A DNA stretch of 64,000 nucleotides from Psammoneis japonica (Eukaryota), in NCBI GenBank assembly GCA_008632985.1, contig QPGO01000019.1, positions 620,001 to 684,000 of the forward strand, read 5' to 3'. A program made the translations under genes and the position numbers. Under the pieces are notes generated by a model, which searched no databases, was not told the origin of the DNA, and worked only from the letters and a program-made list of their open reading frames with translations. Below are positions 1 to 59,392 of the stretch, one piece after another (position 1 is the first letter of the stretch; each line of letters opens with the position of its first letter).

Positions 1-490
1 GTCCCCTGTTGACACAGTGAACAAAGCAAATGCATTTGCCAATGACGCCAATCATGTCAAAGAATGCAGGCCCCCCCTGGCCCACACAAAGCCAGCGGCA
101 AGATGGAGATCTCTCCAAAGAAGACGACAATGAAGCCATTCATTTTGAAATGTGTCATGGTGACAACTCATTCCAGATGTCAGTTTCCGATGAAGATCAT
201 TCGACACCACCAGTGCCCTCTTGGAGAATGAATGTGGACGCACCATGCAGTCAGATGGTGTTGGTTGGTGCAGTGCGTGCGACGATGATCAGTCCTTCCG
301 TCTGTCGTTGGGAAATCCGCGACCACGAACGCCCGCCTTGCACAAACCAACGCGAGCCCCGATCGATAGCCACGCACCCCGCGCAAGCACGCCGCAAGCA
401 CGCCGCACGCCGCACCACTCGAAGATCGACGAGTGCATGCAGGATCTGCATGATGCGATCGTTGTTGTCCATCGCGTCGCTTCTTGTGTC
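1..490. other. TpA-depleted decayed sequence (end of a mutated block continuing left of the window)
   Basis: Only one TA dinucleotide (367-368) found by eye in the first ~490 bp; overlapping ORFs without recognisable product. Confidence 0.6.
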
Positions 491-550
491 ACCTATCGTT
501 GTCACTGTTACTGTCATTAGAGCGTAAAAGTAAGGCGCAGAAGATTCTAA

Positions 551-1252
551 ATGGCAGCTTACGTCTTGTACTGTTGGACGAGCACGTCAATGACTTCAGT
601 TCTGAGTCACGCCTCGACAAGGAGATGTACCTTCGCCACCGTGCTGTCCCGCGCAGAAACTCTCACGACGCAATCAAAAGCTCCTACTCCAAAAAGTGAC
701 GACAAGTTGAAGACTGGTACGAGCATAGGCGTTGTGACTCATGACCAAATTCGAAGAGCCAACAATAAGTATCGAGACCGAATAGAAATTCGTTCAGGTG
801 GGAAGGGATGGGGACTTTTTGCCTTTGATGATTTTCAACCGCATCAATTGTTGATGAAGAGTCGCTCTCTATCCAAAAGTCCAACCCGAACCTTGCATTC
901 TATCCAAACGAATTGGACGACACATGTCGAAATGGATTTGCCAGCTATCCTGATAAATCATGCCTGTGGGCCGTCCGCAGCCAATGTGTATGTCAAACCA
1001 AATGATTGGGGTGCGTACGACTTTTTTGCCATGAGGCTCATCAAAGATGGCGAGGAACTGCTGTTTGACTATGAAACGGTTGAAAGTGACATGACCAACA
1101 CGGGATTTACGTGCTCCTGTCATTCTCGAGATTGTCGAGGTAAACTGAAGGGATATCTACTTAATGCTGAGCTGATTCGAGATCAATACGGAGCGGGGGG
1201 TTGGAAGAAGTACGTTGCGCCATATCTCCTACAGGGAGGGCAACAAAAATAA
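551..1252 (+). CDS. SET domain protein with post-SET Cys cluster (putative lysine methyltransferase)
   Basis: GKGWGLFA, LINHAC, GEELLFDY and post-SET FTCSCHSRDCRG motifs; start codon choice uncertain. Confidence 0.85.
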   Translation: MAAYVLYCWTSTSMTSVLSHASTRRCTFATVLSRAETLTTQSKAPTPKSDDKLKTGTSIGVVTHDQIRRANNKYRDRIEIRSGGKGWGLFAFDDFQPHQLLMKSRSLSKSPTRTLHSIQTNWTTHVEMDLPAILINHACGPSAANVYVKPNDWGAYDFFAMRLIKDGEELLFDYETVESDMTNTGFTCSCHSRDCRGKLKGYLLNAELIRDQYGAGGWKKYVAPYLLQGGQQK

Positions 1253-2171
1253 ACGCAATACTTTAGAGATTTTATCGTCTTTTGTACAATGCAGTACTGT
1301 ACATCCAATCCAGTTCATCCATTCGAGATTGATGCATTTTTTGAACACCATCAGAAATAATGGTACTTCAAGCGTTGATGAAGAGTGAAAGCCCAGACAA
1401 GCTATTGAAAAGACGTCGTAACCCGCCACTTCTTTGGTTTCTATTAAGTTTGTGAGAAACTAGCCTTTGAGAGATGTCTTGTAACTCAAATCGCTTCCTA
1501 ATCCTCCGTGAAACCAACTCACCAAAAGAAAAAGCTGCAGCGTAGTACTTGTCGTCTGTCCACGTCCTTCGTCTCGGTGCTTCAATTTATGAATAATGCG
1601 TGCGTTGGTCGTTGCCGACTGGCAGCCAATTTCCCAATACATCACAAATTGGCACGCGGCTGAAGGTTCCCGAGATAATGTCAAATCCACCGAGATCAAG
1701 TCGTAATCTCAGCGAGGCGTTGCCCCCACCTGCACAAGCTCGTTGTCGATGCACTCAAAACTGGCTTGGATGCCTTGGCGAGGCTTGTCGACACACTGAA
1801 AAACATATCTCCTGATCTTTGAACTTGTGTTGAATAAAATGTAATAATCGATGCTTAGCTTTTGCTGACGAAACCTTCCCGTACCGGAGACCCAATGCGA
1901 TTTTCAATTTATACCAAGGTTAGCCAACGGGGATGGCAGGATATACGTAGGGTTCGTTGTGGTACCGCAGCTTCTCGCTAGCACACATATATTCCTGCAC
2001 ATCACCAGAAAAGATTGAGGAGCCCATTAGCTAAACACATTGAACATTATATCTGCTGTTGATACAATGCATCCCTCTCCGTTCCAATATCAGAACAGTC
2101 TTGCGAATCACCGTAGGCTGGTTCTTGTTGCTCGACAGTACCCTTCACTAACATGTCATGCTGGCAGAACT

Positions 2172-2792: not shown

Positions 2793-3707
2793 GTCAATAC
2801 CTTGCAGTGAGACGTAGCTGTGGGTCGTTGCCTGAATTTCGCGTTCACTTTCTGTTCTCTCTAGTATCTTATGCTGTAGACAGACATTACCGCATGAACG
2901 ACACGTCAAACTGGCGGACAACCTCGTTTCAGCCAAGAAGGAAATCATGCATCGCCAACACATCGAGCAACCGCCTGAAAGTTTTATCAGTTTTAGGTGT
3001 TTAGTGATGCGTAAAAGCAACGAGACATGACTCTATCACCAACACCAGAACTTACAAGGCACCAGGATAACATGACGTTCTTTTGAAAAGCAACAGCGAC
3101 AGCCCTGTTCTTCCGTCATGGTCGATCTAATCTTTTGATCGAGCGAAGTGAAACTTGGACTGTCTACGTACAACGGCCAGTCACTTGATCTATGGGAACA
3201 TGCAAGCTTACTGCTTCTCGTACCGACCCCAGTAGCATTCTACGTCACATACCAGAATTTTAAATTATTTATTTAGTCATTTATATATCATTACGAATTG
3301 ACAACCACCGATTTTTGGCACGCGACACCACCACGATGACACGTTCCGTCGAACGAGTTCGGGCCCACCCGGAATAGTTACCAAGCCATTTGGGTACAGC
3401 TATATCAATGAGGTACTTGCGGATCATATATGTCTCATTGGCTTGGTAATTCTTCGTGGTTGACAAATAAACGACGGCAAAGGATTCACGTGTTGTTTTG
3501 TCGTGCTTTGGCGTCAAGAGCCAGGTTAGTCGAGTTAATCCCAGTAGAAAACCTACGTAGGCCTACTCTGAGCCACAAGCGCGCGTAATAAGCTTGTACA
3601 CACACGCACGCACGACGCTCATTGACTCCTCCTCCCTCTCACAATACGGTACTTCTATGATAAGTACTAGTATATCTCTTTCCCCGCCTCCACCACTCTA
3701 GAGGGCC

Positions 3708-5787
3708 CTAATAATTAAACCCAACAGGCTTTGGACGTATCTTTTTCTCCACATCACCTTGAACATCGCCGCAGCCTTGTTGCAACGAATCCAGAATGGC
3801 TTCCGCCACCACCATGCCGTCCACAGCAGCAGATACAATCCCCCCTGCAAATCCAGCTCCTTCTCCAGCTGGAAATAAGTTTTCTGTTCCAATAGCTTGC
3901 AGGGTCTGACCATCACGGGATACTCGGACTGGACTTGACGTCCTTGTCTCCACGGCATGAAGCAGTCCATCATCGCACAAAAAGCCTGGCATGTTCTTGT
4001 CAAACTGGTTCACAATCGCGTCCCGGAGGGCCGTCACAATGGCCTCGGGATAGATTTCGTGGCATGCAGCTGGCTTTACTCCAAGACGATACGAGGAAGG
4101 AGGCGCCGATACGGAGGCTCTTCCTGCACAAAAGTCAGTGAGACGCTGTACAGGAACCGTCAGGTTGCCACCTCCCATTCGAGCGGCACGTTGCTCCATG
4201 TCTTTTTGGAACGCAATGCCAGCCAGCACACCGTGTTCCTTACGGTACTTATCGAGGATTGCATCGTCGGGTGCCACCGTCACGACGAGTGCTGAATTGG
4301 CCCACTGCGAATCTCGCTTGCTAAAGCTCATTCCATTGACACAGACTTCGTTGGGATCAGTCGATGCAGGAACGATTTGTCCACCTGGACACATGCAGAA
4401 ACTATACGCCCCCCGATTGGCAACTCCGTCAAATGCCTTGTCAGTAGCGAGGCGATAGGATGGAACAGGCAATTGACCTGGATGAATTGCCTGGTCCACA
4501 CCCAAGTACTGCTTATTGGCCGTGTCGGTAGACTTTTTCTTTGTCACAACAGACGCGGCCCAATCTTGTCCGTATTGAATTCGGTTAATGATTTTCTGAG
4601 GGTGCTCGACACGAAAGCCAGTGGCAAATCCCTTTGCCTCAAGCTTGACACCAGCAGCATGTAGTTCTTCGTACACATCTCGTGCGGAATGCCCAGTGGC
4701 CAACACGACGGCGTCTCCAAGAATGGTTTCCTCCTCTTTCACGGGTAGAGAAGTAGCAGCATTCCCCCCGCGTTCACTTGTTGGGGAGTACTGGACCTGA
4801 ACTCCTTTTGTAACACCCTCATCTATAACAAAGCCAGTCACTTTTGCTCCAAATCGTATAATGCCACCAAGCTGTCGTAAATCTTGTCTCATGTTTCGCA
4901 GCAACCGAACAAGATTGTCGGTACCCAAATGCGGAGCTCCGTCCACAAGTATTTTCTCAGGTGCCCCATACTTGACCAGTGTCTCCAATACATATCTCAC
5001 ATTGTCCGAGTTACGTCCAATCCGTGTCGTGAGCTTTCCATCACTCCACGTTCCAGCGCCACCCTCACCAAAACAAAAGTTGGAATCTTTGTTTAGAAAA
5101 CGTCTGTGCATGAGAGCTCCAATATCCTTTCCTCGTGCTTCGACTGGCTGACCACGTTCAAGCAGTATGGGCACACAGGCGCCCGATTTTGCCAATTGCA
5201 TGCACAAAACAATCCGCAGGTCCAGCTCCACAATCACGACACGGGGCTTGTTGGATTCTGGGTGCTGTGGCTTATTTCGCTGCAGCATTCGAGACAGTAG
5301 CCTCTTGATTTTCAATCAATTCCAATCGTCCCGGTTGGTGTCGTAGCTTGAGTCTCTTGGCTATGGATGGCGATACATCTACATCCACTACATGAGAATA
5401 TCGTGGATCACCTCGATTCTTCCGTCGTGCATCTACGGATCGACGAACCATGCGCACGTTCGACAGCTCGACAGATTTGTTTTTGAGATTGAGTCGCTTG
5501 GAAGAGCTACCAAGACGGGCTTGGATAAATACATTTGTCGATAGTCACCGCTTCGTCCGTAGTAGCGGTCAAAGATCAGGATGAACATTGACTCCAAACA
5601 CTCTCCACGTTTGTGTCTCTCTATGGGGTACGTTAGATCTGTCATGGTTTGTTTTTGACTTTATCTCCGTGTTTCTGCATCTTCTAGAATGAGAATTACA
5701 CGAGAGCGATGTTGATGTCCATCCTGAAGAGGAATATACAATGCAAAGTAGCAGTATTAGCGACTCTTTTGTTCTTAGAATCGCCAT
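3708..5787 (-). CDS. FAD/NAD(P)-dependent oxidoreductase (uncharacterised conserved dehydrogenase family) with N-terminal targeting peptide; 5' part carries several apparent frameshifts
   Basis: GEGGAGTWSDGKL, VVLATGHSAR, SFCMCPGG, ETRTSSP, GEGAGFAGGIVSAAVDG motifs; the Rossmann GAGPAG and VRRSVDARRK segments lie in shifted frames at 5200-5580; hydrophobic N-terminus MAILRTKESLILLLCIVYSSSG. Confidence 0.8.
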
Positions 5788-5866
5788 GACGACGGCTTCA
5801 GAAAAAAAGAAGAAAAATGAGGGATGATTGGCACTGGATGCGATGTGCGATGCGTGCATGCGCGCG

Positions 5867-6004
5867 ATTGTAGCAGCGCAGGGGGAAGGACAGACGCATC
5901 CACCTCCCACCGTACGCAGCCTTGAACGAACCTGAATGCCAATGGCATTCTTTGCAACTCGTCGCCGCCTATCGAGGCCGTAGTAGTAGTTGTAACTTTT
6001 TGAC
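5867..6004 (+). repeat. Split direct repeat A1 (138 bp; second copy A2 at 11941-12078)
   Basis: Ungapped alignment to A2 with 8 mismatches. Confidence 0.95.
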
Positions 6005-6037
6005 AAAGGGAGCGACATACGCCAACCTTGTCCTCTC

Positions 6038-8122
6038 ATGGCTGCTGTCCCTCCTGTGGCAGCCGGTGGAGCGCCTCCGGCTCCCCCAAAAACACACCAC
6101 GACAAGTGGATGAGTCAAGGAGATCACTTGGGTGGGGAGTGTGCGAATTTGTTCCGTCGGCACGATGCCACCATCGCTGCTCCCGAGCCGGCCGCCACGC
6201 CACTCGAGCACATCATCGACTTGAGCGATGTGGTCCCCAAGGCCTTCTTGGCGCCAGTGCGGCAAGGCACAGGTTGTCGTGCAACCTGCATCCACCGGCC
6301 CTCTGTGTGCATCAGAGACCCGGTGGAGACCTCGCCTTGGGACGGACGAGTGTTTTGTTTTCACGGAGACGTCCCACCGGGTAATTTTGTTGCCATTTTC
6401 GAGATGCCCAACACTCCGTTCGACATTGTGGGGCCTCAAGTGGCACCTGCTGTGGCCAACATGGCCGCCCTCGAAGGTGCCTTGGTGGATGACAATGATT
6501 TGACACCTCCACAAACAGATGGCGCCCCGGACACCGACACCATCTATGTCCGCCGCCTCGTACAAGTGCCCCACGCCCACCTGCATCTTGCACTGACCCA
6601 GGATCTCACCCCACTGCAAGCCTGGCGGGAACTGGCAGGAGCAATCCAAAATGACGGTCGCGCGGGGGACTTGAGTCCTCTCATCGACTGGTTGCGCGCG
6701 GCACTCACCACCGACACCGCGGCAAATCCAGATCCGGTCCATTGTCTGGGCGACCGTGCCACTGCCTTGCTGCCACTTGCGGTGGACGCCAGACTGCAAG
6801 AGCATCGTTGGCGCACGTTGCTGCAAGACCCACCCGCCTTGGATTCAACGGCCGTTGATGACACCGACCGTGTGCTGGCCTTCGCTGACATGGTGCGAGC
6901 CGATGCAGCCCACGTGGAAGCAACACGCTCTGCAGCTGCAGCCGCAGCCTCAGTGCCCAAGACTCTGGTGGAAGCCTTCCCGCAGACCACACCCGTGTGG
7001 CTCTTGCTGTCGAGCGCACCGGACGATGCAGCCTTGCCCGCACTGTGCCACGCTTGGGCCAATGGTGCAAAGGCCGAGCGGCACCTGTGTTTTGCTCGGG
7101 CCTTGGAAGCGCACACCCAAGAACCCAACGCGGCATCTCGCATCGCACCTGTGGTGTCGAAGGAGCCATGCGAGATGGCATTGCAAGGGAAGGTTGCACC
7201 CCACGTGCACCAAGTGAACGACTTAACCGCCGGCGTGTCGCCCTTCACCTGTGGTTTCTTTCTTGCCGGACAAGGTTCCACCATGCAAGTCCGGGCCGAA
7301 CGCTACGACCTTGCGTTGGCTGGCAACCTGACACCTGCGGTTGCGGAACAAGAGGAATTCCGCACCAAGGGTGTGCCGCTGCCGACGTCCACTTGCCATT
7401 GTGGAAGCATGCTTCAAGCCACCAGCCCAGTCTTGGACGTCATCCAAGGCTCCGACCACCCACATGCTGTGGCTTTCCGGCAGTTTTGCCTGGAGGACTG
7501 GCGAGACATGGTCGACTTGCTCGAGCAATCCGGGACCCTGCTGGCAGAGGGAAACGTCCCACCCCGGATTTGTCGCGAGGTGCAGATGCTCATGGGGGTC
7601 TGTCTTCGCAGGCTCACACAAAGCGGGGTGCCCCGGGTGCCTGACTGCACCGCAGTGGCGTACAAGGTGCTGCACGGGCAATTCTCCCTGCTGGCACAGT
7701 TGCCTTGTCATCTGCTGGGCCAGCCAGACAGGGCGGGTGGTCCCCAAATGAGCTCGACTGGCGCCCCCAACAGCAGGACCACCTCCGCACCAGCCACTGC
7801 CGCTGGGCGTCGCGATCCCGGTGCGGCCGTTACGAGTCCCAACCCAGTGCGAGCTTGGCCAGCAGCCTTCGCACAAGCCGGAATCCGTTTGGCCACGGTG
7901 CGCTGCTTCGCACCCCGCACCATGGACCCGAGTGGCACCGCACGCAAAGTGTGCCTTTCGCATCATCTAAAGGGGACGTGCTTCGCCAACTGCGAGTGCA
8001 GCAGCACCCACCGGAACCTCTCGCCGCATGAAAGAATGGCAATGAGCACCTTCGTCCGCGACCACGTGGCCAACCCTCAAGAAGGTGGGGCCCCAGCACC
8101 GGCGCCAGCGGCATCCACCTGA
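6038..8122 (+). CDS. Gag-like ORF1 of the Ngaro-like element with C-terminal Cys/His zinc-finger-like motif (mutated)
   Basis: 694-aa ORF just after A1; C-terminal VCLSHHLKGTCFANCECSSTH; only 3 Tyr in 694 aa. Confidence 0.8.
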   Translation: MAAVPPVAAGGAPPAPPKTHHDKWMSQGDHLGGECANLFRRHDATIAAPEPAATPLEHIIDLSDVVPKAFLAPVRQGTGCRATCIHRPSVCIRDPVETSPWDGRVFCFHGDVPPGNFVAIFEMPNTPFDIVGPQVAPAVANMAALEGALVDDNDLTPPQTDGAPDTDTIYVRRLVQVPHAHLHLALTQDLTPLQAWRELAGAIQNDGRAGDLSPLIDWLRAALTTDTAANPDPVHCLGDRATALLPLAVDARLQEHRWRTLLQDPPALDSTAVDDTDRVLAFADMVRADAAHVEATRSAAAAAASVPKTLVEAFPQTTPVWLLLSSAPDDAALPALCHAWANGAKAERHLCFARALEAHTQEPNAASRIAPVVSKEPCEMALQGKVAPHVHQVNDLTAGVSPFTCGFFLAGQGSTMQVRAERYDLALAGNLTPAVAEQEEFRTKGVPLPTSTCHCGSMLQATSPVLDVIQGSDHPHAVAFRQFCLEDWRDMVDLLEQSGTLLAEGNVPPRICREVQMLMGVCLRRLTQSGVPRVPDCTAVAYKVLHGQFSLLAQLPCHLLGQPDRAGGPQMSSTGAPNSRTTSAPATAAGRRDPGAAVTSPNPVRAWPAAFAQAGIRLATVRCFAPRTMDPSGTARKVCLSHHLKGTCFANCECSSTHRNLSPHERMAMSTFVRDHVANPQEGGAPAPAPAAST

Positions 8123-10214
8123 GGACGAGGGCCGGCCAGCTCTAGAGCTGGCCTGCAGCCCTCCTCTGCACACTTGCCAGATCCGTGCCAGCAGTGCTCG
8201 CGCAGCAACGAACTAGGTGAGTTAGCAGAGGAGCACGTCAAACTCTTACAAACTTCAGGCTAGAGCCAGTTCGTTGCACATTTGCGCAGGGAGCCGTGTC
8301 TGGCCGAAAATGTTCAGCAGTCACCTCATCCAGCTGCCAAACTGCTTTCCGATCTCCGCAACGATGGAGCACCGGTCCAGTTTTCAACGGAGGACTGGAC
8401 ACCGGACCAGGTCCGGATGGCCACCGAGCGCGGAAGCCATCCGTCCACCAACGAGCACCTGGGTTTCCTCGAGTCGGACATGGCGGACATGATCCGAAAG
8501 CAATGCTGGACAGTCCTGCCGTTCCGTGAAGCCTGCAAGTTGCCCCACCTGCGCGTCTCACCGATGGGCGTGGTGCCACAACGCGACCGCCACCTGCGCA
8601 CCATCATTGATCACAGTTTCTACGGGATCAATGACGAAACCGTGAAACACGCCCCACCGGAGGCAATGCAATTCGGCCGAGCTCTCGACAGGTTCCTCCA
8701 CAGGATCTTTCGAGCCGATCCGAAGCATGGCCCAGTGCACATGCTCAAGCTTGATCTCTCAGACGGATTCCATCGCGTTGGGCTCCGCCCCCAGGACATG
8801 CCAAAGCTTGGGGTGGCCTTCCCAGTGAGTCCAGGCGAGGAACCGTTGGTGGCACTGCCTCTCGTCCCACCCATGGGCTGGACTGAAAGTCCACCATTCT
8901 TTTGTGTGGGAACGGAAACTGTCGTTGACATTGCTGACAGCTGTTTGCCCACATCGTGGGACCCTCCGATTCACCCACTCGAACAGGCGGCATCCACTCC
9001 AGTGCCCCACGACGACACCATGCGCATCGATGTGCCACCGCCTTCCACTGCAGCTCTAGCCAGCCATGTGTCACGCCTTCCTTCTCCCACCGCACTTCAT
9101 CGCAGACACCAGCGCGGCTCCCAACCGTTGGAGCACTTTGATGTCTACGTCGACGACGAGATGTGCGCCACACAAGGATCGAAAGCTCGCCTCAACAAAT
9201 TATGTCGCCGCCTCTTGCACATCAACGACCAAGTCTTCCGGCCCAACACACCATCCGATGCTCACTGGCGGCGCGAGACTATCTCGCTCAAGAAGCTCCT
9301 CAAAGGTGACGCGTCCTGGTCTGCGGTCAAAGTTGTTTTGGGTTGGCTCATTGACACGCTAGCAGGGACAATCCAATTGCCGCCGCATCGACGACAACGC
9401 CTCCTGGACATGCTTGCTGACACCATTCCACGTCACCGCACATCCAACAAGCAATGCCACAAACTTCTCGGCGAAGTGCGCAGCATGCTGTTGGCGGTTT
9501 CCGGCGGCGCTGGCCTGCTCTCCAACCTCCAGCACTCTCTTGCCACCTCGAGTAACTCCCGCACTCGAATCAACCGTCATGCGCGCCGCCAACTCCAAGA
9601 CTTGCACACCTTGGCGGCAGACATTGCCTCTTGTCCCACGAGGCTCGCCGAACTGTTCCCTGCCGCCGATGGGCACTGCTGTGGTGCGTGCGACGCAGCC
9701 AAACCAGGGTTTGGCGGCGCGTCATTGCCAGGTCCCCTCGACGACTTCCCTCCGACCGCCTGGCAAATTCCACTGCCACCGGATCTGCAAGCTGCCATTG
9801 TCTCGGACGACAACCCCGATGGCACCACAACAAACTCTGACCTCGAACTCGCCGGAACTGTTTTGTCAAGAAGCCGTCGTAGGCATCACCGTCGATGTCA
9901 GAGAACGCACGGTCCACACGTGCTGCGACAACACCCCCGCGATTTCTCGACGCGGCAAAGGCTCCATCACCACCAACGGCCCAGGCGCCGATGTCCTGCG
10001 AACCAGCAGCCTGCAACAACGCAAGCTCCGACATGTCTCCCGCTTTCATTGCATGCCTGGCCCAGCAAATCTCCTTGCCGACATGTGCTCCCGCAAATTC
10101 AGCACACCGTCTCACCTCCTTGCCACTCTCACTTGCCTTGCCCCACAGACGAAACCTTGGCAAATGCCACTCCCGCCGCCCAACATCGTTTCTTTGCTGA
10201 TCTCCACCTTGTGA
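8118..10214 (+). pseudogene. RT-RNase H ORF2 of the Ngaro-like element
   Basis: SPMGVVPQRDR, LKLDLSDGF(H)R, PMGWTESPP, YVDD, CDAAK.GFGG, NSDLELAG, CDNTPA motifs; in-frame TAG at 8261-8263 and frameshift near 9865. Confidence 0.88.
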
Positions 10215-11731
10215 CGGCAAAGGCCCGCGAAGCTGTCACTGACAAGCAAGCCTGTGCCACGGACACTGTCTGGGCCAAATGTTGGTTGCCATTCCCACCC
10301 GACATCAGAGTTGAAGACCCTCTCCTCACCGGTGTCCAAGACAAAATCCCGATGCTCCAAGTCTTTGCCTGTCGCCTCAGGGATGGACGCCTCAGCCATG
10401 GCGGCAACCCAATCTCAGCTCTGCACGTTCGTGACGAAGTCCTTCATGTCGCGAAGACGTTCACCGAACTGGGGGCCCCGGACCCACGTTTAACGCCACA
10501 TGGCACCATGGATCCACGTCTCACTCGCCTGCACAGCGCGTGCTCCAAAGACGATCCACCTCCGAACCGTGTTAAACCTCTCCCAACACAAACAGTGCAC
10601 CACGCGCAGGCCCTTGTCGACAAATCTTCCCCACTCGACAACGCCATCATCGACATGTCCTGGATTGGGCTCTTCCACCTCTTGCGACCAGGTGAACATT
10701 GCAAAAGCAAAGACAATGATCCCTTGGTCTTGGCCGACATCAAGCTGCTCATTGGACAACGAGCACTCGACCACTTGACCTGTCCATTGCCGCAGCTGTT
10801 CCTCGCTGCACACAGCAGCATCACCTTCAACATTCAGAAAAACCGAGAACGCGGCAAAACGGCAGGTCACGCTCGAAGCTCACACTCCAAAGTGTGCCCC
10901 ATGCTGCCATCGCCCGCCACGTGCATTGCCTGCATTCAAATGGCGCCAACGCTTGAACAGCCCTGTGTGCCGTGCGCCTCGGCAGATGTTGGGGGACGTG
11001 TTCCAGCTCTAGGTGGGACCTCGTGCTGCTGAACTGTGACACAATTATTTTTTGTCATCCGTCGTATGTTTCGCACGTACATTTCTACGTGTTCCATTGT
11101 AAAAAATTGTTCCACACTGCCTGTTTTGCGAAGCCAAAGGCTTTCTGTTGTCTGCACTTGTGTCAATAAAAATGCGCTGGGCACATTCTTTAATGTCTAA
11201 AGAATGTGCCCGGGCATGCTGTAAAGAATGCACTTAAAGTGTGGAGGAGGAGATGCATTCGCAAAATTGCCTCTTTTTCTGTTGGCGATCATTCATGTGT
11301 CCATTGCTCAACGATTTTACTGCGGAGCTCGCACGTAGAATTCTGCGGGCCCAATGTCACAAAAAGTCCCACCTAGGACTGGAACCCGTCGGGGTCACGT
11401 CACAAGCCGTGCCATCACCAAAATGCTCCAAGTGTTGGCCGCCACCTTGCCACATCTGGGCTTCCCACCCAAGGACGTCACCGCACGTAGCCTCCGAGCA
11501 GGGGGCGCCACGGCACTCCTGTGCACCAAAGCAGACACCGACATCATCCACCTCGTCGGACGATGGAAATCCAACACCATGTTTCGACACCTTCATGCCC
11601 AAGCGCTGCCGCTGATCGCAGGACTCTCCACGAAAATCCTGAACCACGGCAACTTCACGTTACTCCCGGGTTCCGACGTCCCCCCCGTTGCACAAAATGT
11701 CATCAATCAAGCCAAAGCACCCGCCAACTGA
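10150..11731 (+). pseudogene. Tyrosine recombinase ORF3 of the Ngaro-like element, interrupted by a MITE
   Basis: DPPPNRVKPLP, LLRPGE(H)C, QKN, RSLRAGGATALL, VGRWKSNTMFR(H)LH; frameshift ~10900, TGA ~10955, insertion 10995-11390; start approximate. Confidence 0.88.
10995..11390. mobile_element. Non-autonomous DNA transposon (MITE), 396 bp, ~25-bp imperfect TIRs, GGGG target-site duplication
   Basis: Left GACGTGTTCCAGCTCTAGGTGGGAC vs reverse-complemented right GACGGGTTCCAGTCCTAGGTGGGAC; GGGG at 10991-10994 and 11391-11394; excision restores YR frame LGRCWGHVTSRAITKML. Confidence 0.85.
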
Positions 11732-11810
11732 CGGGTTCACATCTTTGCCCACCCTCAGCTCCGCTTCTGGCCCAACCCCTTGTCACTTGTCGGCGCTCCA
11801 AGAGTGGCAG

Positions 11811-12236
11811 ATCGGAGGCGGTCTCTGTTGCTGGTGAGCCAAAAGAGGGCAAGATGCCCCAGCAAAGCGCTGACACCACCAACTGCCACCTCCCAACTAC
11901 AGTGGGACGCACCCCCCAGCAATGTTGGTGGCAATCAGCCATTGCAGCAGCACAGGGGGAAGGACAGACGCATCCACCTCCCACCGCACGCAGCCTTGAA
12001 CGAACCTGAATGCCAATGGCATTCTTTGCAACTCGTCGCCGCCTGTCGAGGCCGCAGTGGCAGTTGTGACTTTTTGACCCTCCACTCCCACCCAGTGCCG
12101 CCTCATCGGAGGTGGTCTCTGTTGCTGGTGAGCCAAAAGAGGGCAAGATACCCTAGTGAAGCGCTGACACCACCAACTGCCGCCTCCCAACTATAGTGGG
12201 ACGCACCCCCCAGCAGCGTTGGTGGCGAACAGCCAT
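11811..12236 (+). repeat. 3' split repeats B1-A2-B2
   Basis: B1 11811-11942 and B2 12105-12236 are 132-bp direct repeats flanking A2. Confidence 0.93.
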
Positions 12237-12766
12237 GGATACATGAGTGATGAGCGTGGATGTGCGTTCGTCGTCCGTCATTCAAAGCTAACCACCCGCA
12301 ACCCGCAACCACTAGAGAGTAGCTTGGAAACTGCGCATTGGGCATCTTTAGAGTTGCTCTCTAGAGAAGTAAGTTACACATCACCGGTCCTTTTGTTAAG
12401 TGTGGCTCTGGAATTCTAGACTGTCGGCTGCGAGGAAACGGGCAGAAGAAAAAAATGTGATGACAACAGGGAACAAGGAAGATTTTGAAGGATGCGCAAG
12501 TGCGGAAAAAAAACTGCAGCAAAGTCACTTGTCATCTCCCAGAAGACCTCTACTCTAGAGAGTAGTTCTTCCACTCCCTCTCTAGATACAGTAGAGTAGA
12601 GCTGGGTAGCGTCATCAGACCCAATTCAACATTTTGTGTGCACATGAGTGAAACACTGCTAGCTAGTGGAGTTCTCACAAAAATCATTATCATTCTACTA
12701 CAATTATAAAGCATCATACGTCCAATTCACAAACAAGCAAATACTGCGGGATTTGATTCATCCCGT

Positions 12767-13981
12767 TTACTCCTCACGATAGTCACACTTTAAAATAAAG
12801 ACCCCATGAGAGTTACCGGTAAGAGCACCCAAGGCATATCCAAGAACCAAGTCCCCGTCCTTTGGACTCTTCTCGGATAATTCTAGACGATGATGCAAGG
12901 CGCATCCAACCGAAGTGCCCGCCAGATTGCCAAACTTGGATCCAATAACAGACGTCTTGTCGGCGCATTTGAAATGATCACACACCATGTTGATGACTTT
13001 GGGGTTAGCCTGATGAAACACAATGTGTTGAAAAGATTTCAACGAGTAACCATACTTGGCCCTCAAGGAAGTAAGCCAATAACGAAGACTGTCTGGTATA
13101 GCCTCGGGGCCTTTTGGGTTGAGGCAGAACACATCCATCGGATCACCGCCATCGTCGAGGTTAATAGAACCGCGCGACGAAATGAATAGATCGGGATCAC
13201 AAACAATGTCTGCATCCAGCAGCTTGTAGGTGCGCTTTGGTAGGTTTTTCGTCGAGGTGGACAAAATGCAGGAGAAGGCTGCGTCTCCAAAAATGACGCA
13301 GTTGATCCACCGGAGAAGGTTGTTGTCCTTGCAGAGGGCCTGCCTGTGTCTCTCTTCGACTCCAAACTTGGAAGTGCAGTTGCTAATCACAATCGCGACG
13401 TTGGTGTTCTCTGGTGACTGAAGAAGCTGATTGGCCATCCTGAGTGCGTGAACCAATGCCGGGCAACCATAAGGCAAAATAATGAGCTGGAGTCTCTTGG
13501 AGAGCTTGGGGTATCGCTTGTACCAGTCAATGCCAGCTTGATTGAAATAGACATTGTCCACCGTACAGGAAACGTAGATCAACACGTCAATATCTTCCAC
13601 CTTGGTCTGCGCTTTCTCCAAGGCCTCATCAAAGCTGCGGAACATGAGCTCTTCCTCCGTGATTTCGCCGTCAAACTGCATTTCCTCGGGAGGGACACGG
13701 CCCTCCATCCCTTCTGGCTTCCTTCCTATAGCAATGTGCGTCATGTTTAGGTATCGAACAGCCCAGTCATCGGCTAATCCTTTGCCATTTTTTGGGTTGT
13801 GAATCCCATACTGTTCACGAAGTCCCCGGCAAATAGTTTCCGTAGAGATACTGGCTCCTGGTACCCCATTAAAGCCCGGAATGGCGCTGGACATGCCACG
13901 AATGCGCACCGTTAGTTCGCCATCTGCCTGACCATGAGTCCTGCGCTTCGTTGATCGAGGTGCTCCACATATAAAGCGCAT
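12767..13981 (-). CDS. 3-oxoacyl-ACP synthase III (FabH/KAS III)-like condensing enzyme, intronless
   Basis: Cys-His-Asn triad motifs PYGCPALVHAL, IVFHQANPK, FGNLAGTSV; IFGDAA; first ATG at 13981. Confidence 0.8.
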   Translation of the reverse strand: MRFICGAPRSTKRRTHGQADGELTVRIRGMSSAIPGFNGVPGASISTETICRGLREQYGIHNPKNGKGLADDWAVRYLNMTHIAIGRKPEGMEGRVPPEEMQFDGEITEEELMFRSFDEALEKAQTKVEDIDVLIYVSCTVDNVYFNQAGIDWYKRYPKLSKRLQLIILPYGCPALVHALRMANQLLQSPENTNVAIVISNCTSKFGVEERHRQALCKDNNLLRWINCVIFGDAAFSCILSTSTKNLPKRTYKLLDADIVCDPDLFISSRGSINLDDGGDPMDVFCLNPKGPEAIPDSLRYWLTSLRAKYGYSLKSFQHIVFHQANPKVINMVCDHFKCADKTSVIGSKFGNLAGTSVGCALHHRLELSEKSPKDGDLVLGYALGALTGNSHGVFILKCDYREE

Positions 13982-15951: not shown

Positions 15952-17069
15952 GATGTGAAAGTGATGTGAAACTGAAAAATAGAAAAACGGGAGAACATAA
16001 AATAATGAGGGACCCCATAACCCACATAACCCGCCCGCCGCCGCGCACACCATCCACCTCGTGCGTTACGACCCTAACTTTTTCCGTACCCACGCGGTTT
16101 CGCGCGATTGCCCTATTTAAACAAAATTTTCAATTATGAAGAATACCAACATAAATAACAAAACTTTTCTATTCAAATAAATACAAATAAATGTGTGCTG
16201 TTTCGACCGTGACAGTTTTGTCTAATGGCATTACAAGCCCTATCATAGGACAGACTTTGGACCTGTAGTTTGGACAATTGCGAAGAGATCCGTGCCATAT
16301 ACACAACCGGACGACACATCTGAATGGACTATGGCAATAGGGTGCAAAAAAGTGACGGACAGACGCATACATACTGGGGACGTATGTAGACACCATGGAA
16401 GAGTGACTTTTGGCGATAATTTCCGAAATCTTCTGTCCTATTCAAAGTTTTGCATTATGCATAGGTTTTGTCAGCAGGGCTGTGCACCCTGCTTCATAAG
16501 TGTCTAAACTAAATGTCTATGGGTCGAAATGTGTTTTAAGCCGAGTCATTCTTCTGAAGCTGCTGACAAAGAGGAAAGGCAACATTTTCTATTCAAATAA
16601 TATAACACCAGGAAATATGTGATTAAATATATAAATAATAATGAAATAACAATTAGGGTCTGCGGGAAATCGCGGATTGAGGCGAAAAACGCAAAAAATC
16701 TATAGCAGAAATGTTAGAAGTAGTGTGATGACACATTGCATCTAGCAGTAGCACCGGTGCGATTTCAGCCTAGAGATTATGAACTGTGCTGTTTTACAAA
16801 AAGAGAACAGTGCCCAGGCCTTTATAGAAATACTCATCATTGCTTTTGAGGTTGCCTTGCGCACTGTCATGTTCTCAGAATCGGAAACTGCGGCATGTCG
16901 TGAAAGCCGTCGAGTCCCTGCGCCGTCGCCGAGCATTGGTGCTGTGCCAGGCTTGACACCTTCAACTGGTGGGTGCCAATTTGCCATGGATGGCACCAAC
17001 TTTGGTTCACCATCTGTTCGCAGGGCTGGAACAAAGAAAAACAATGTTTCCAAAGAAAATTGTTCTGTC

Positions 17070-18072
17070 CAATTGTAGATCCTTGTAATCTGCGTTAAAA
17101 AGTGGTTCACCATTTTGAATTGCAAGCTGTGTTATGACAGCTACAGCCTGAAATACATCGGCATGCTTCGACAGTGGTTTGTGGCGAAACCTTTTCTCCA
17201 GAATTGCCCAATTTTTGAAGCGTTCGTGCACGTCTCCTGTCGATTGAGAGCACGCCTCTGCATTTCTTCCATCTCCTTCGGGTTTGCAAAACTGCTGGGG
17301 CACTTAACATGGATGGGGGACTCACCCACACACCCATCGTCAGCCTCCATGCGTTCCCCTTGTCCAGTTCCGTCTTCAATGCCGATCGAAAAATGTCCAA
17401 GTCGTTGTGCACACCGGGCGCAAAGGGCCCATTAATCCACACAATGTGACCGGTCAAAATGCATGCTGCACTTCGTAACGAAGTCCGCAGTCATTGAATT
17501 TATGAGAGTAAAACTTCCTGCCGTGATTCGGGACACGAAAGTCTGTTCCGTCCACAGCAACTGGACAATCGTTTCCGACGTCACCAGTGCGGCGATTCTC
17601 CCAAATCATCTGGGCAGAACAAACAACAACACAAATGATGCGGGTGAGAATCAATTTTTTGAAAAATGTGGAAATGTTGTCGCAATTGGGCACTCACCAA
17701 GCATGGCTCGAGCAATGCAATGGCCTTGATCATTGGCCACTTCCATGTTCGGAAAGTTTTTTCGTCGACTCCCCCAGCTTTGCCGGCAAGGTCAGTTTCC
17801 TTGCCATCAGATTTCAAAAAATTAAGTGCCCACAGCATGTGGCAGGCATTTGCTCCGTGGGGCAGCACGTCGTGGTGGACGAGGAGGTTCCACAGCGCGA
17901 GAGCCACGATTGGGCCGCAACCAAAAAACTCACGAAAACGCCTGTCCTCGGTCATTGTGGCGCCAAACTTCTTGTCACCTCTGTTCATCATTCCACGCCC
18001 CAAATTCATGAGGTCCTGCAGTCCGAGGGCAAGCCAGCGCATCCTCTTTTTATCTGGTTGAAAAGCGGCCAT
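17070..18072 (-). pseudogene. Harbinger DDE transposase (DDE_Tnp_4-like), one intron (~17610-17696), about three frameshifts
   Basis: FREFFGC, VDEKTFRTWKW, VAVDGTDF, YSHKF..GLRYEV, TGHIVWINGP, EADDG(C)VGE, ERFKNWAIL..RFRH motifs across frames; 3' end approximate. Confidence 0.85.
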
Positions 18073-18842
18073 GGCGAGTGGTGGGCCGGAGCAAAACAAT
18101 GTTGTCTCAGTGTGAAGCATGAAGCGCAACAACAAAATCTCAATGATTGGTGGGACTGGGATGTCTTCCAGTGTGGACCGTAGCAGTGCCACTGCGCGGT
18201 GCGCACGTGGGACACTGCCTCCATGATGCGCAGATCTCTCGTTTAGCTGGGTGCGTGACGTGATGCAGTTGGATGTTTTTGTAGCTCTTGCGCAGAAAAG
18301 ACGCTTTTTTTTTTAGGCGAGCTCACGCGTTTTCTGCCACACATTTTTAGAAAGTGTGACAAAACTTTGGCTCAACGGAAAGTTGTGGCCACAGACATTT
18401 TGCTGCACATCCGGGTTTCTTCTTCAATCCCACAGGATTCTCAGTGCACTTTCTACACGAGCTTAGAGAATCCGGATGTACAGCGAAAAACTGTGACCAA
18501 AGCTTTACATCCGGGTCTTTGTGTGACGTAGCTGCCAGCAGTGATTCTACGTAACATCCGGGTTACATGCAAAGCCAAAGTTGCGCCATCAAAGTTTTTT
18601 GTCGAAAAGCTGTGACGCAACCAAATAGCCCACATAATCAGGGGCCCAAAAATGTGTGATAAAAATGTCATTTTCACGAGTTCGTTGTAGAGATGTGCTA
18701 GAGATCGCGCCATTTGTCCGTTGGTGTCGGTCTTGTTGATCGATCGTTTCAGAAAAACCAAAGCAGCTCTGCTGTTTGCTGTTCACACGGCACACTCAAC
18801 ACGGCCCACAACCCACAACAGGAGGAAGCCACGACGAATGCC

Positions 18843-20159: not shown

Positions 20160-20586
20160 GCATTGTTCTGTTTTTCTAAATAGCACAGTTTGTAATCTCT
20201 AGCCTGACATTGTAGATGCAATTGGCTTCGATGGCTTGGGCCTACCTGGCAGGCGTCCGTAAGATAAGTAAGACCGGACCCGCATTCGTCACATTTCTGC
20301 AAGATTTATGTGCGTTTTTCGCCTCAATCCGCGATTTCCCGCAGACCCTTACACTTGAGAGTTAAAAATTAGAGAAAATACCGGGACAAAAAATGTTGTC
20401 CTCAATAATATGACTCTGCTACATAGAGGTTGAAATGATATTCGCCATGATGATCTACATTATTTGTGTACAACGCCCAGAGATGACTTTTATTTTTTCG
20501 AAAATTCATCGGAACGAAATGACGAAACAGAAACAGCACCAAATTTACCACATTGAAATCAAAACACGAGGCTTTATCTCCCCGCT

Positions 20587-37255: not shown

Positions 37256-37757
37256 TGCGCAGTTCTGGTGCAGGTAAGACCACACCCCCGAGCGTGTTAT
37301 TTGTTGTCTTGTCGGCAGTTGCCACAGTGATTTTTGGACAGTTGTTTGGGAGCATTGTTCCGAGCGTCGGACTACCCCTGGCTGTGGGCCCATTATTTCT
37401 CATGGTAAGTTGTTATCTTTGTTGCATCTAGTTATGCTGGGAACGTATTGACCTGACGAATGGTTTCACTGGATGGTGGCAGCAGCTTATTGTTTTTGGT
37501 GGGCTCTTTGTAAATGTCGATCAAGTTGATCCCTGGTTTTGTGTGGATATCGTACGAATCTTTTGTGCGTTATGGTTGCGAAGGAGTGATGATTGTGATT
37601 TGGGAGCAGGAGGGCGGGAGGTTTGGAATCATTTTCATGGAACGTCGACCACAAATGGCGCAATCTTGGATGCCTAAGTGCACTCCTTATTAGTTCCCGA
37701 GTTCTGGCAATGGTAGCTCTCAAATTCCACTCCGCGAACAAAACTAAATCAAGTTGA
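37256..37757 (+). pseudogene. Internally deleted duplicate of the ABCG gene
   Basis: 37256-37290 matches 20884-20919 (Walker A) and is joined to a match of 22127-22601; frameshifted. Confidence 0.85.
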
Positions 37758-37901
37758 AGAAATATCACACGGAATACAGCAGTTTCGAGAGGCGTTCTTC
37801 GAAATCTCTATTGTTATGATTGTAGATGCTGCAACACTGCTGCCGTGCTCTACTAAATAAGGAAGTTCCCATCATACAAGAGGACCAAACTCAGTTTACA
37901 G

Positions 37902-40636: not shown

Positions 40637-41856
40637 CTCCAAAAGCAAACCAAGAGCAAAAAACAACCAAACTTTTGGGTGTTTTTCGAGTTTTGACGTC
40701 AAGCTCACATCTCACAGAAAAAGGGGGCGGTCTGAGAAGGACGACACGAAAAGGACAAATGACTCTGATAATTCGGTGTAATAATTGTTATTTCAATTAA
40801 GTCATAATAAAAAATGGCCTACAAAAAGACTTATAGAATAACTGTAAAAATTTTATGTGTTTATTAGTGTCCGAAGCTTTTACATGAATCTAACATTATT
40901 GGCAACAAATTGATAAAATTTATATATATATATTGCCCATTTTTTCTTTATATATTGCCCCATCAGTCCCGGTGACAATTTTGAAAGTGGAGAGAGCAGA
41001 TGGGATGGAGGACAATGGCGGTCACCATTCATCATTCATCATGCTGAAAGCATCCACACCTAGCTGACAAATGCATGTTCGAGAGGGCCCTGTCTGTAAG
41101 CTCCCAACAATCTCATTCGAAAAGCATGGTATGACCCTTTATTTGCGTGACGACTTTGCGCACACATCGGCTCGTGAGTGCATACCATACTTTTTGTTGG
41201 TGCCCCGGCATGCTCCTCAAGGCTGCCAAAGACAGCTCTTATGGTTGGACCTCAACTAAAGGGTCGAAAAATTTGTAAGGATCTAAAGGATGTGAGGAGC
41301 AATGGCAAGTAAGTACCGCATATCGGAGGAAAGAACAACAAGTTTGCATCCGACGCATACAGGTCAAATCTTCCTTCCAAACGACGACAAAAGTCGCCCA
41401 GAAATTCTCTCAAGAAATGTACGCCCCTCTAGATTCTTCAGAACACCATTGGCTGTAGGTATGGATCGTTTTAGCGAACTGGATAACAGTTGGCGAGCCT
41501 CACCAGAGACCCGTGAGGAGACACATGCTAGATTCCAATACCAGGACGTCAGCTGAAGTGAGACTCGCACTATACAGTAGTTACTTTGCTGTTTAGTTGA
41601 GGGGCTGGGGTGTAGTTAATGACGTTCGTATAATGCAAGCTTTTTCTTCATTGCGGAAAAGTTATCAAAATGGTTTTTGCACGCGTCGGGGTTGCATTCT
41701 CTTGGGAGAGCTGAACTTGTACTGTACATTCTTCGTGCGTAACGCTATTCTCATTATTGGTCGGACTTCAAAAACATTAAATCTGCCTTAGAAATGACTA
41801 CAAAGAAACGCGATTCGCTGCAGAGCTTGTATGAGATCTCGGGGAAATCTCTCACG

Positions 41857-56595: not shown

Positions 56596-57161
56596 GGTGT
56601 AAAACTTCTTGATTGACTTTTTCTATAGAACCAACCCAACACCGCTGATATTGACATTGCCCGTTTGCCGTTGCTCCGCCATTGGTTGTCTGGTTCGGTT
56701 GCGATGCGATGGGCGATGGCGATCGATCGATGAGGTGCGACGTGCTTGGTACAGTACTGTACGTAGGGCCCTACTGCGCGTAAATTAACGTCTGCATGCT
56801 GTGCCGTGTACTGGACCGGCATTCTTACTCACAGTAGTGCATACATACATCATGTAGATATTTTCTCTTACTGTATCATACCTGTAGTCGAGATGCCCTT
56901 GATTGAGTGCTTCTACCACGGCACAGTTGCAGTAGAGAGCTAGGAGTATCAAAAAAGCTGAAGTCTCCTCTAGCTAGAGACTAGAAGAGCGTGGTGCTCT
57001 AGCTTAGAGAGATCTGCTGTGTGGAGGAACCACCGAAACATTTGTGGTCACTGCCAGCTGCTGCGAACATGTCGCGCTTTCCGCACGCACAGAAATCTCT
57101 TGCACTTCATCGTTGAGAGTCCAACACACGAGAAAGTTGGATCCTTGTGAGCTTCAAAAGC

Positions 57162-58990
57162 TCAGCTCATGCAGGCAAGTTCCACATGTTCGCTGACATC
57201 CTTGGTGCGCCATGGCCATGCGCCCATCGCTCCCGACTCCCAACTCTTTGCAGCGACTCTCTTTGGGTCTTCTGCGACCCATTCACAGGAATGACTCTCT
57301 TCAGTGGAATGCCATCCTTTGTCATCCATGCACTTTTTTGATTTGTCATTTGGTGATTTGCATGTGTTGCAGAGGCGTGGGCATGACTGGAAGGCTGTTG
57401 TTGTCTTGCCGTTGACTGTTCCCAACTTGAGCTTCTCACATTTCTCATGCTTTTCTTCAAACTTCACAATTTCATTGCACATCTTGTCTTTAATTCTCCA
57501 CTTTGGATTGTCCTGGCACACACCGCTTGGCACGCAAGTCCCACATGTGCTTCTGCAAGACTCGTGTGCCAAGGTTCGTCTTCCGTTGCCATCAATGCCT
57601 TCCTCTTTGCATTGTCCTTTGGCTTCTCTGCGATCCATTCACAGGAGTGCAGTCTTTCATCTTTGTCAAGTTTTCGCCATTCTTGGTCATCTTGGCATTC
57701 TGTTTGGGGAATGGTCTCACCAAACATGCACACGTTGCACATGACAGGACATCCTGTGAATCCGCGTGCAGTTGCGCCGTTTGCCTTTCCAGGTTCAAAG
57801 CATTTCGAGTGCAGCTCTTCCTTTGTCTCAATGGCAAAATCGCAGCATGTCTTGCCGTCCTTCTTCTTTTCAGCCCAGTTCGGATCATCTTGACAGCCAC
57901 AATCATTGGAGAAATCTTGTTTGGTGGCGTCTTTGGTTGGTGTTCCCGCAGCCTCCAACCCTGGACAAGAACCGCAAATCCTTGGACAAGCCTGGTGTGC
58001 AGCAGCTGTTTCGCCGTTGCCATCAATTCCAACCTCTTTGCAGTTTCTAACGTCCTGTGCAATGCTTTTGCAAGATCCGCGTTGGCTGCTGTGACACCAT
58101 TGCTCATCATCTTTGCAATCGATCACCTTGGTGTCTTGTGATTTGCATGTGTCACATGAAAGTGGACAGGAATGGAATGCCATCGTAGCCGCGCCAACTG
58201 CAACTCCCAGTTTCTCGCAAGGTTTGCACAAGTCTTCCACAATGTTGCTGCACGTCATTGTCACTTCTCCATCCCGCATCTTTCTCCAATTTGGATTGTC
58301 CCGACAAACTCCTGAAATGCAAGTAGAGTGGCAGGCTGCAACGGTGCGGTTGGAGGATGACAGTGTTGCTGCGATGATGGCGGCGGAGCTGCAGGCTGCA
58401 ACGGCACGGTTGGAGGATGACAGCATTGCTGCGATGATGGTGACGGAGCAGTGGGCTGCAACAGCACAGTCGGAGGATGATGGCATTGCTGTGATGATGG
58501 CAACAGAGTGGCAGGCTGCAATGGTGTGGTTGGAGGATGACAGCATTGGTGCGATGACGGCGGCGGAGCGGCAGGCTGCAATGGCGCGGTTGGAGGATGA
58601 CAGTGTTGCTGCAACGACGGCGATGGAGCAGCAGGCTGCAACAGCATGGTTGGAGGATGACAGTGTTGCTGCGATGATGGCGATGGAGCGGCAGGCAGCA
58701 ACATGTGGTTGGAGATGAGTTGGATGACATTCTTGATGATGATTGAACAGAGTGACACACGGTGATCGGCGGGAGTGCTGTTCTTGAGAGTTGTCACCAC
58801 GACGATGTGAGTCCACCATGTCCATGATGGGGAGAATGATGAGGGTGATGCACAGTGGAGTCATCACGGTTGTGACATCTTGAGCATCGGGCAGAGCGAT
58901 GGAGGGAGGAGGGAGGAGAGCGGTCACGACCTCTTGGCCGAGGCGGAGCACTGCTGTCACCTCTTTTGCAAGATGCATGGCGTGAAGTGG
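57162..58990 (-). pseudogene. TpA-depleted, frameshifted paralogue of the Cys-rich repeat gene at 61537-64000
   Basis: Collinear CRDNP/CKDDEQW/CQDD/CQDNPKW repeats; His or Cys where the intact copy has Tyr; frameshift ~57615; 5' end approximate. Confidence 0.8.
58326..58713. repeat. 60-bp minisatellite, ~6.5 copies (Pro/Ser-rich linker on - strand)
   Basis: GCAGGCTGCAA...GGAGGATGA...TTGCTGCGATGATGG recurs every 60 bp. Confidence 0.92.
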
Positions 58991-59392
58991 ATGGACAAAC
59001 AAGGGTTGGCACTGACAGTGTGGACAGAAAGCAACAACAGAAAGGCTCGCGGTGGAGTGAGAAACACAGCGACAACCATGTTGCTTTGTCTTTTACGTTT
59101 GATGTGATGAGCTGGTGGTTACAGCACGTGGTGTGCCCAAAATGACCGTTAAATTTGTGCCAACGTGCCAAAATGACCGTTAAATAATGGGCACAACCGT
59201 AGATTCTCAAAAATTAACGGTGTCATTTTTAAAAATGACCGATTTGAGGAATGAGGATTAAGAATCCACGTTTTCGAAATTCCGGTAAACAATCTTTCAG
59301 CAAACCAAAACAGCAGCGGCGCAGCAGCGTAACTCTATAACAGAGGTGTGGTTGCTCAAAACAAACGCTGTAGTATTATCTTTCAGCATAAA

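Follow-up and report, generated by a model that had tools for sequence, protein, structure and literature searches.

Bounded loss of TpA points to targeted hypermutation of transposons and a dead gene copy in Psammoneis japonica

Of the 302 single-nucleotide mutations found in the nuclear DNA of mutation-accumulation lines of the chlorarachniophyte Bigelowiella natans, 231 lay in two regions of integrated viral DNA. All but one of these, 230 in number, were A>G or T>C changes, and every one of the 230 struck a TpA (Mettrop et al., bioRxiv 10.64898/2026.01.13.699255, 2026). The text of that preprint also describes clusters and coding sequences in the same genome that are poor in TpA, rich in CpA and TpG, and enriched for reverse transcriptase (RT) and DDE endonuclease domains. 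It proposes DNA adenine deamination, with an ADAT2-like protein as candidate; cites reports of DNA editing by ADAT2/TadA in amphioxus and Trypanosoma; and observes, in its Discussion, that ADAR prefers a 5' U. Here we describe a similar footprint in an ochrophyte stramenopile, in a 64,000-nucleotide stretch of the Psammoneis japonica genome (the window: GenBank assembly GCA_008632985.1, contig QPGO01000019.1, positions 620,001 to 684,000, forward strand). A retroelement, a DNA transposon, a dead copy of a gene and a silent block of 11.5 kb have lost TpA almost entirely, very probably through real, locus-targeted hypermutation of TpA to TpG or CpA, in place, in DNA. A preliminary description, made from the letters of the window, had proposed such a process and knew of no natural system with this signature. 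That last point no longer stands: the B. natans preprint reports exactly this spectrum, and P. japonica is a second host lineage for a recently described kind of process. Full-text searching of the literature found this one description of the signature, and its available text mentions neither diatoms nor stramenopiles.

Other known processes share parts of the signature. Fungal repeat-induced point mutation (RIP) changes C to T, mainly at CpA to give TpA, leaves DNA AT-rich, and mutates both copies of a duplication. Like the process described here, it installs DNA-level, context-dependent transitions that irreversibly inactivate transposons and duplicates within sharp limits; here, however, the direction is opposite, in that TpA is lost, CpA and TpG are gained, and GC content rises. 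Deamination of 5-methylcytosine (5mC) also turns a self-complementary pyrimidine-purine step into TpG or CpA, but leaves TpA alone. ADAR and APOBEC3 are animal families that act on RNA or on pre-integration single-stranded cDNA, mostly on one strand, with ADAR favouring 5' U and 3' G. They resemble the present case in the context-dependent hypermutation of repeats and viruses, which there is driven by deaminases. The present changes lie on both strands of DNA that is already integrated, non-retro sequences included, and the flank preference differs: ADAR shares only the 5' T. Finally, the tRNA adenosine deaminases ADAT2 and TadA act on A34 after the invariant U33, and so (like the process here) in a UpA context.

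TpA-poor tracts and the direction of change

Dinucleotides were counted per 500-bp bin along the window, and the expected number of TA was taken from the background density of 43.3 per kb. The five sharply bounded TA-poor tracts of the preliminary description are all present (Table 1, where the retroelement tract takes two rows): TA density is 1 to 12 per kb inside them, against 43 per kb in the surroundings, and the Poisson P for the deficit runs from 1e-8 to 1e-152. As an observed/expected ratio (o/e), TA stands at 0.03-0.11 in the strong tracts and at 0.22 in the DNA transposon with terminal inverted repeats (TIRs), versus 0.60 in background. Both CA (o/e 1.36-1.97 in tracts, 1.16 in background) and TG (1.25-2.02, against 1.17) are raised, and therefore both DNA strands are affected; the loss is equal across all reading frames and both strands. 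Tract limits are sharp, TA loss ending within tens of bases: at 57006, the 250 bp upstream hold 25 TA and the next 486 bp hold none. The genes that flank the tracts have TA at background level.

CpG follows a different pattern. It is kept (o/e 0.6-1.0) in four tracts and lost only in the 11.5-kb tract, where the mark of 5mC deamination is present alongside TpA loss. The by-eye estimate of about 8 TA with abundant CpG in the 'gag' open reading frame (ORF) is close to the count in Table 1. As the preliminary description had argued, TpA loss is thus separate from CpG decay, since four tracts lose TpA and keep CpG; it is also opposite in direction to fungal RIP.

Within the tracts, long ORFs overlap on both strands because TA-to-TG and TA-to-CA changes remove TAA and TAG and never make a new stop; these ORFs are no evidence of function. 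Among 77 tract ORFs of at least 100 aa, Pfam finds nothing credible except a weak RVT_1.

The split direct repeats of the retroelement give the direction of change. Split-repeat copies become identical at insertion. Repeat A1 lies outside the erased zone and A2 inside it; the two differ at 9 of 141 positions, and seven of these are all of the TA sites of A1, which read CA (four) or TG (three) in A2. All 50 other A/T bases are unchanged (Fisher P 3.8e-9). A1 and A2 belong to one inserted copy, and the changes are therefore post-insertion. When four polarised pairs are pooled (A1/A2; B2/B1; host versus tract; live versus dead paralogue), A>G affects 43 of 112 adenines after T but 88 of 667 that follow any other base, an odds ratio of 4.1 (P 1.8e-9); each TA is counted once per strand, so that 38% per adenine is about 76% per site. 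The claimed TA-to-CA and TA-to-TG differences between repeat copies, and the claimed excess of TpA over other A:T contexts, are both borne out. So is the broader claim that both strands are changed on DNA, with no RNA intermediate, to which the A1/A2 pair speaks along with the spread of the footprint over retroelement, TIR element, host DNA and gene paralogue.

The protein-coding consequences agree. Tyrosine makes up 0.2% of the retroelement pol ORF, against 1.1-3.6% in 120 homologues, whereas histidine (6.0%) and cysteine (3.4%) are both raised. Seven alignment columns are conserved as tyrosine (in at least 60% of 60 homologues); the window copy has tyrosine in none and histidine in five, and the codon for the invariant tyrosine of the DGFYR motif is now CAT. 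Other changes are those expected (Ile to Met or Thr, Leu to Pro or Ser, Val to Ala), along with CpG-type changes of Arg to His, Cys or Gln.

A live gene and its dead paralogue tell a similar story. The 33 TA in the aligned part of the live gene (61583-62591) correspond to no TA at all in the dead copy, which has TG at 15 of them, CA at three, and other dinucleotides at the remainder; 14 of 50 CG in the same alignment remain. The 542 codons of the dead ORF include no tyrosine. Three columns hold tyrosine both in the live paralogue and in P0121 (44% identity), the one good homologue that the protein collection offers; the dead copy has cysteine, histidine and asparagine there.

The preliminary description had allowed that relatives elsewhere might be equally poor in TA. 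They are not: 79 metagenome relatives of pol have TA o/e of 0.35-1.02, and 1-kb windows with TA o/e below 0.25 number 6 of 1333 among them, versus 75 of 253 here. Two search patterns were used, one of which contained tyrosine and so was biased against erased relatives; with them, no comparably erased relative was found in the metagenomes, where the longest TA-free gap is 437 bp versus 1011 bp in the window. One metagenome contig with a pol relative (L041:1-5253) has a mild, contig-wide footprint (TA o/e 0.18-0.62, CA and TG o/e 1.2-1.5), and could represent an element of some other organism that has been affected in part.

Flanking bases and the mosaic of erased and spared segments

Survival of TA depends on its neighbours (R, purine; Y, pyrimidine), a context dependence that resembles that of an enzyme. 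Retention relative to background is 0-2.6% for RTAY, 5-22% for RTAR and YTAY, and 11-55% for YTAR, and all four tract sets show this order (P 0.002, 1e-4, 6e-14 and 0.2). Among individual tetranucleotides, retention is 0% for ATAT, 0.8% for ATAC/GTAT, 27% for CTAG, and 35% for TTAA. The products point opposite ways: RCAR gains exceed RTGR gains, yet the conserved tyrosine codons include five changed to histidine and none to cysteine. Because these product counts are inconsistent, the preference is given as a strand-symmetric hierarchy only, and not as a purine at -2 or a pyrimidine at +1.

Erasure does not cover whole elements. In the retroelement, A1 keeps 7 TA in 155 bp and the final 87 bp of B2 keep 3. 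The TIR transposon has two erased blocks (16832-18400 and 18700-20150); its first 177 bp, its last 199 bp and a 299-bp spacer (18401-18699) are spared. TA density in these spared ends and spacer is 34-62 per kb, which is background-like. In the dead paralogue, the erased zone runs from about 160 bp past the position equivalent to the live stop to the ORF start. To judge from ORFs and homology, the erased blocks appear to resemble transcription units and not whole elements.

Repetition alone is no trigger, because a five-copy tandem array of host genes in the window (75-87% identity) is untouched, and just one paralogue of two is erased. This also sets the process apart from RIP: the erased gene copy has a partner that keeps 33 TA.

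Elements and host DNA in the window

Coordinates are collected in Table 1. K-mer depth comes from a public sequencing run (X1), which holds 75% of the 31-mers sampled from window positions 3000-12999.

Table 1. Features of the window. Tract rows give observed TA and the number expected at background density.
Feature	Coordinates	Strand	TA observed	TA expected	Remarks
Tract at window start	1-490		1	21.2	Truncated by window start; CpG kept
Ngaro/DIRS-like retroelement	5864-12236	+			Split direct repeats
Repeat A1	5864-6004				Pairs with A2
Repeat A2	11938-12078				Pairs with A1
Repeat B1	11811-11942				Pairs with B2
Repeat B2	12105-12236				Pairs with B1
ORF1 ('gag')	5996-8122	+	9		162 CG in 2127 bp
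pol ORF	8264-11032	+			Divergent RT, 922 codons
pol C-terminal remnant	11396-11683	+			pol homology resumes at 11396 (tblastn map)
Erased zone of retroelement	6019-12149				A1 and B2 end spared
Tract in retroelement	6019-11009		23	216.1	
Tract in retroelement	11489-12149		3	28.6	
MITE-like insertion	11012-11373				About 360 bp; 8-bp TIRs GGTGGGAC / GTCCCACC; TA target duplication
TIR DNA transposon	16656-20348				3.7 kb; 39-bp perfect TIRs; TTA target-site duplication on both sides
Tract in TIR transposon	16832-20150		41	143.7	
Host segmental duplication, copy 1	22127-25748				87% identical to copy 2; normal TA
Large tract	25745-37250		44	498.2	11.5 kb; TA o/e 0.03-0.07; CpG o/e 0.07-0.17; single-copy depth
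Host-derived piece in large tract	26586-27000				Matches 40975-41339
Scaffold gap in large tract	31236-31255				20 N
Tandem duplication in large tract	35744-36056 / 36055-36365				Internal
Host segmental duplication, copy 2	37293-40838				Begins about 40 bp past large tract; normal TA
Dead paralogue (tract)	57006-59094	-	5	90.5	2089 bp; 542-codon ORF 57464-59092
Live paralogue	61537-63579	-			680 aa; normal TA; unmutated reference

The labels 'Ngaro' and 'Harbinger' given to the two transposons in the preliminary description are each partly supported, by element architecture. The order of the split repeats, A1 ... B1-A2 ... B2, fits a Ngaro/DIRS-type element (identities 93.6% and 91.7% for the A and B pairs). 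Its pol has 370 homologues (best E 3e-192), some of which carry PF00078, and the named relatives come from diatoms. The RVT_1 match of the window copy is weak (E 0.039), as it is in six homologues, and a PDB profile matches RT only. A tyrosine recombinase, which elements of this type have in place of an integrase, was detected neither by Pfam, in window ORFs or in six long homologues, nor by the PDB profile. In the second element, the 3-bp TWA-type duplication (W, A or T; here TTA) and the TIRs amount to PIF/Harbinger-type ends, and depth in run X1 (280-520) suggests about 5-9 genomic copies. PIF/Harbinger elements encode a DDE_Tnp_4 transposase, usually beside a second, Myb-like gene. The 14 ORFs of at least 100 aa in this element have no Pfam match, and a six-frame pattern search gave no DDE-type motif.

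A miniature inverted-repeat transposable element (MITE)-like insertion lies inside the erased pol ORF and has a normal TA density of 35 per kb. Its k-mer depth in run X1 is 25,000-50,000, versus about 55 for single-copy DNA (about 500-900x); it is a very abundant and apparently young element. It either arrived after hypermutation stopped or is exempt from it. Its insertion site is one of the few TA left in the erased ORF.

The large tract occupies the space between copies 1 and 2 of a segmental duplication of host DNA, and copy 1 stops exactly at the tract start. It contains a host-derived piece whose differences from its match at 40975-41339 are mainly transitions. A self-alignment of the tract, recoded as purines and pyrimidines, finds this host piece and the internal duplication but nothing else beyond a shuffled control (best 58 bits). 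None of its 37 ORFs has a Pfam match. When 10 of the 120 homologues of pol were compared with the window by tblastn, matches were confined to the retroelement, with none in the large tract. Near its middle, stretches that are palindromic in purine/pyrimidine space (30855-31007) adjoin the 20-N scaffold gap.

The surrounding host DNA is a tandem array (22127-52800) of about 3.8-kb units in five or more copies, 65-87% identical, which encode concanavalin-A-like (Laminin_G_3) proteins. The array is normal in TA (41.8-52.8 kb checked) and is interrupted by the erased tract. One X1 contig joins 20913 to 22127, omitting 1213 bp; most likely this join comes from the second duplication copy (37256-37293) and not from a deletion allele.

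The live paralogue has Cys-rich repeats and a Pro/Thr-rich region, and the family has a recurring Cys-rich module (...YQ[AS]C..[TI]CG.C...). Apart from the homologue P0121 already mentioned, database comparison gave no good match in the protein collection, and none in Pfam. The dead copy includes a 60-bp tandem repeat (58265-58744; at least 6 units, 63-84% identity) with no counterpart in the aligned live part. Tract 1-490 has no Pfam match, and no match elsewhere in the window in purine/pyrimidine space. SET-domain ORFs (551-1252 and 59333-61276) adjoin this tract and the dead paralogue; their proteins show no specific relationship to each other (best local match 19 residues long, E 0.004), and their position beside the tracts is probably coincidental. 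Protein comparisons agree with an ochrophyte stramenopile host: besides the diatom relatives of pol, a host ABC transporter has its best named relatives in brown and yellow-green algae, at 46-47% identity. Of two host proteins looked up in a protein atlas, one fell in bacterial-type clusters and the other had no usable match. A near-identical database entry is missing for all three proteins compared, which sets the host apart from B. natans.

Candidate agents, alternatives and significance

We tentatively favour, at close to but not quite an even prospect, a putative targeted DNA adenine deaminase that requires a 5' T. Working on either strand, such an enzyme would deaminate the adenine of TpA, and the resulting hypoxanthine would be read as G; the enzyme would be recruited to silenced transcription units, perhaps via transcripts or chromatin; and the outcome would be genome defence, through permanent inactivation of mobile and foreign DNA.

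The same footprint could be written from the other base of the step. Thymine modified at TpA, as 5-hydroxymethyluracil (5hmU) or a base-J-like derivative made by a TET/JBP-type enzyme, would mispair with G and yield T-to-C change. TpA-to-CpA and TpA-to-TpG are strand mirror images, which makes adenine and thymine chemistry inseparable by sequence, and dinoflagellate 5hmU is enriched at both TpA and TpC. Here, however, no effect at TpC is visible, TC/GA being not noticeably depleted in the dinucleotide tables; neither the modification nor the enzyme is shown for this host; and the sole experimental report, as far as its text goes, favours an adenine deaminase, itself by inference (Mettrop et al.). 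Thymine chemistry therefore seems unlikely.

Error-prone patch repair in methylated heterochromatin, set off by repair of deaminated 5mC, is an improbable source. An A>G bias at WA motifs is known for polymerase-eta-like synthesis, CpG and TpA are both missing from the large tract, and copies differ from one another mostly by transitions of the CpG and TpA types, all of which this explanation would accommodate. It would not accommodate four tracts that are nearly free of TA yet keep CpG. Nor are AA and TT depleted in the tracts (o/e 1.0-1.4), though WA includes AA; and in the A1/A2 pair, adenines changed at 0 of 17 positions after A versus 7 of 14 after T.

A base-calling or library artefact, a possibility raised in the preliminary description, would mean that TA is still present and that some modification of TpA in silenced DNA leads to a wrong call; this is very improbable. 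K-mer contigs from run X1, at depth 53-65, agree with the window over 1.4-2.7 kb to within 0-1 differences, unlike noisy long reads; one of 2711 bp (depth 63.5) covers 25408-27999, across the tract boundary at 25749, with a single difference. These contigs exclude assembly or polishing error and make a noisy-long-read miscall unlikely. They are not independent confirmation: no record gives the sequencing platform of X1, the assembly probably came from the same sample, and some chemistry-level artefacts would escape this comparison. The 20-N scaffold gap also speaks against an artefact, and the young MITE reads TA normally inside the erased zone. Other genomic copies of the two transposons, moreover, differ from the window mainly by transitions (A>G 91, G>A 103, C>T 74, T>C 95, versus 6-15 for each transversion class). 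Forty of these sites were listed; they include seven adjacent CA/TG doublet exchanges, and some sites are TA in one copy and TG or CA in the other. Such copy-specific outcomes are what independent mutation predicts, and are unlike a systematic miscall.

Two further explanations are scarcely credible. ADAR-like A-to-I editing of double-stranded transposon RNA, fixed by reverse transcription, would suit the 5' U preference of ADAR and the retroelement, which is the strongest fully annotated case, but is excluded for most tracts: A1 and A2 differ within one inserted copy, the footprint extends to the TIR transposon, to DNA derived from the host and to a gene paralogue, both strands carry it, and TA with a 3' purine is the best kept, opposite to the 3' G preference of ADAR. 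Native composition or selection, in foreign or fast-evolving DNA that avoids TA as a target of TA-inserting transposons or UA-cleaving RNases, would find some support in that TA-free DNA offers no target to TA- or TWA-inserting elements and in the MITE that sits at a rare surviving TA, but it fails on the destroyed invariant tyrosines of the catalytic region, on the equal loss in all frames and strands, on the ordinary TA of relatives, and on the host-derived piece that is converted in the tract beside a normal copy.

Several points weigh against targeted TpA hypermutation by a deaminase, besides the tyrosine-containing search pattern and the record of run X1 already described. The process is read from end states, with no mutation observed in progress. 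Polarity is assumed for the two older of the pooled pairs, and contexts other than TpA show 13-16% A/G differences. CA/TG doublets between copies could derive from ancestral CG as well as from TA. The limits of the putative transcription units are drawn from ORFs and homology, and no deaminase was found among the ORFs of the window. The flank hierarchy, finally, fits neither the 3' G preference of ADAR nor the contexts of tRNA anticodon loops in any simple way; purine at -2 and pyrimidine at +1 have no evident counterpart in the anticodon loop.

Comparison with B. natans sharpens what the two hosts share. In both, so far as the preprint's text describes, A>G and T>C changes are confined to TpA, the affected DNA is bounded and non-host or silent, TpA depletion is accompanied by gain of CpA and TpG, and the process is seemingly not constitutive. 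The differences are equally clear: B. natans is a chlorarachniophyte, its described targets are giant-virus and virophage inserts, and its nucleocytoplasmic large DNA virus region has a TA o/e of 0.45 (Mettrop et al.). In P. japonica the targets are a retroelement, a transposon with TIRs, a dead paralogue and DNA derived from the host, and erasure approaches saturation, with a TA o/e of 0.03-0.11 in the strong tracts. New mutations were directly observed there; here there are end states only. New here are the near-saturated TA loss, the explicit targeting of transposons and of a dead gene, and the flank hierarchy together with the spared element ends and spacer, neither of which appears in the main text of the preprint, although its supplement may record flanks.

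Two lines of enquiry into the enzyme can be drawn from the literature and from this comparison. Many diatoms have RID-related DNMT4 genes, described as of unknown function (PMC9998398); these are a lead only, because DNMT-type enzymes act on cytosine. A second host opens the search more widely, to genes that are common to both hosts and absent from relatives without the footprint. Any enzyme or guide proposed must reproduce the preference for RTAY over YTAR and the mosaic of erased bodies and spared termini. A natural, context-specific A:T-to-G:C mutator of DNA is also of interest to base-editing research. For genome annotation, erased elements lose tyrosine, evade domain models and yield long spurious ORFs because TAA and TAG stops vanish.

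It is possible, though the suggestion is more speculative than that of the enzyme itself, that a guided adenine-deaminase defence is common to stramenopiles and rhizarians and perhaps ancient in the SAR group (stramenopiles, alveolates and Rhizaria). It would target the transcription units of transposons, viruses and silenced genes, with RTAY preferred over YTAR; and, as the mirror image of RIP, it would raise GC content and remove TAA and TAG. With a second, distant lineage now in hand, the process looks like a class of genome defence, with transposons as clear targets.

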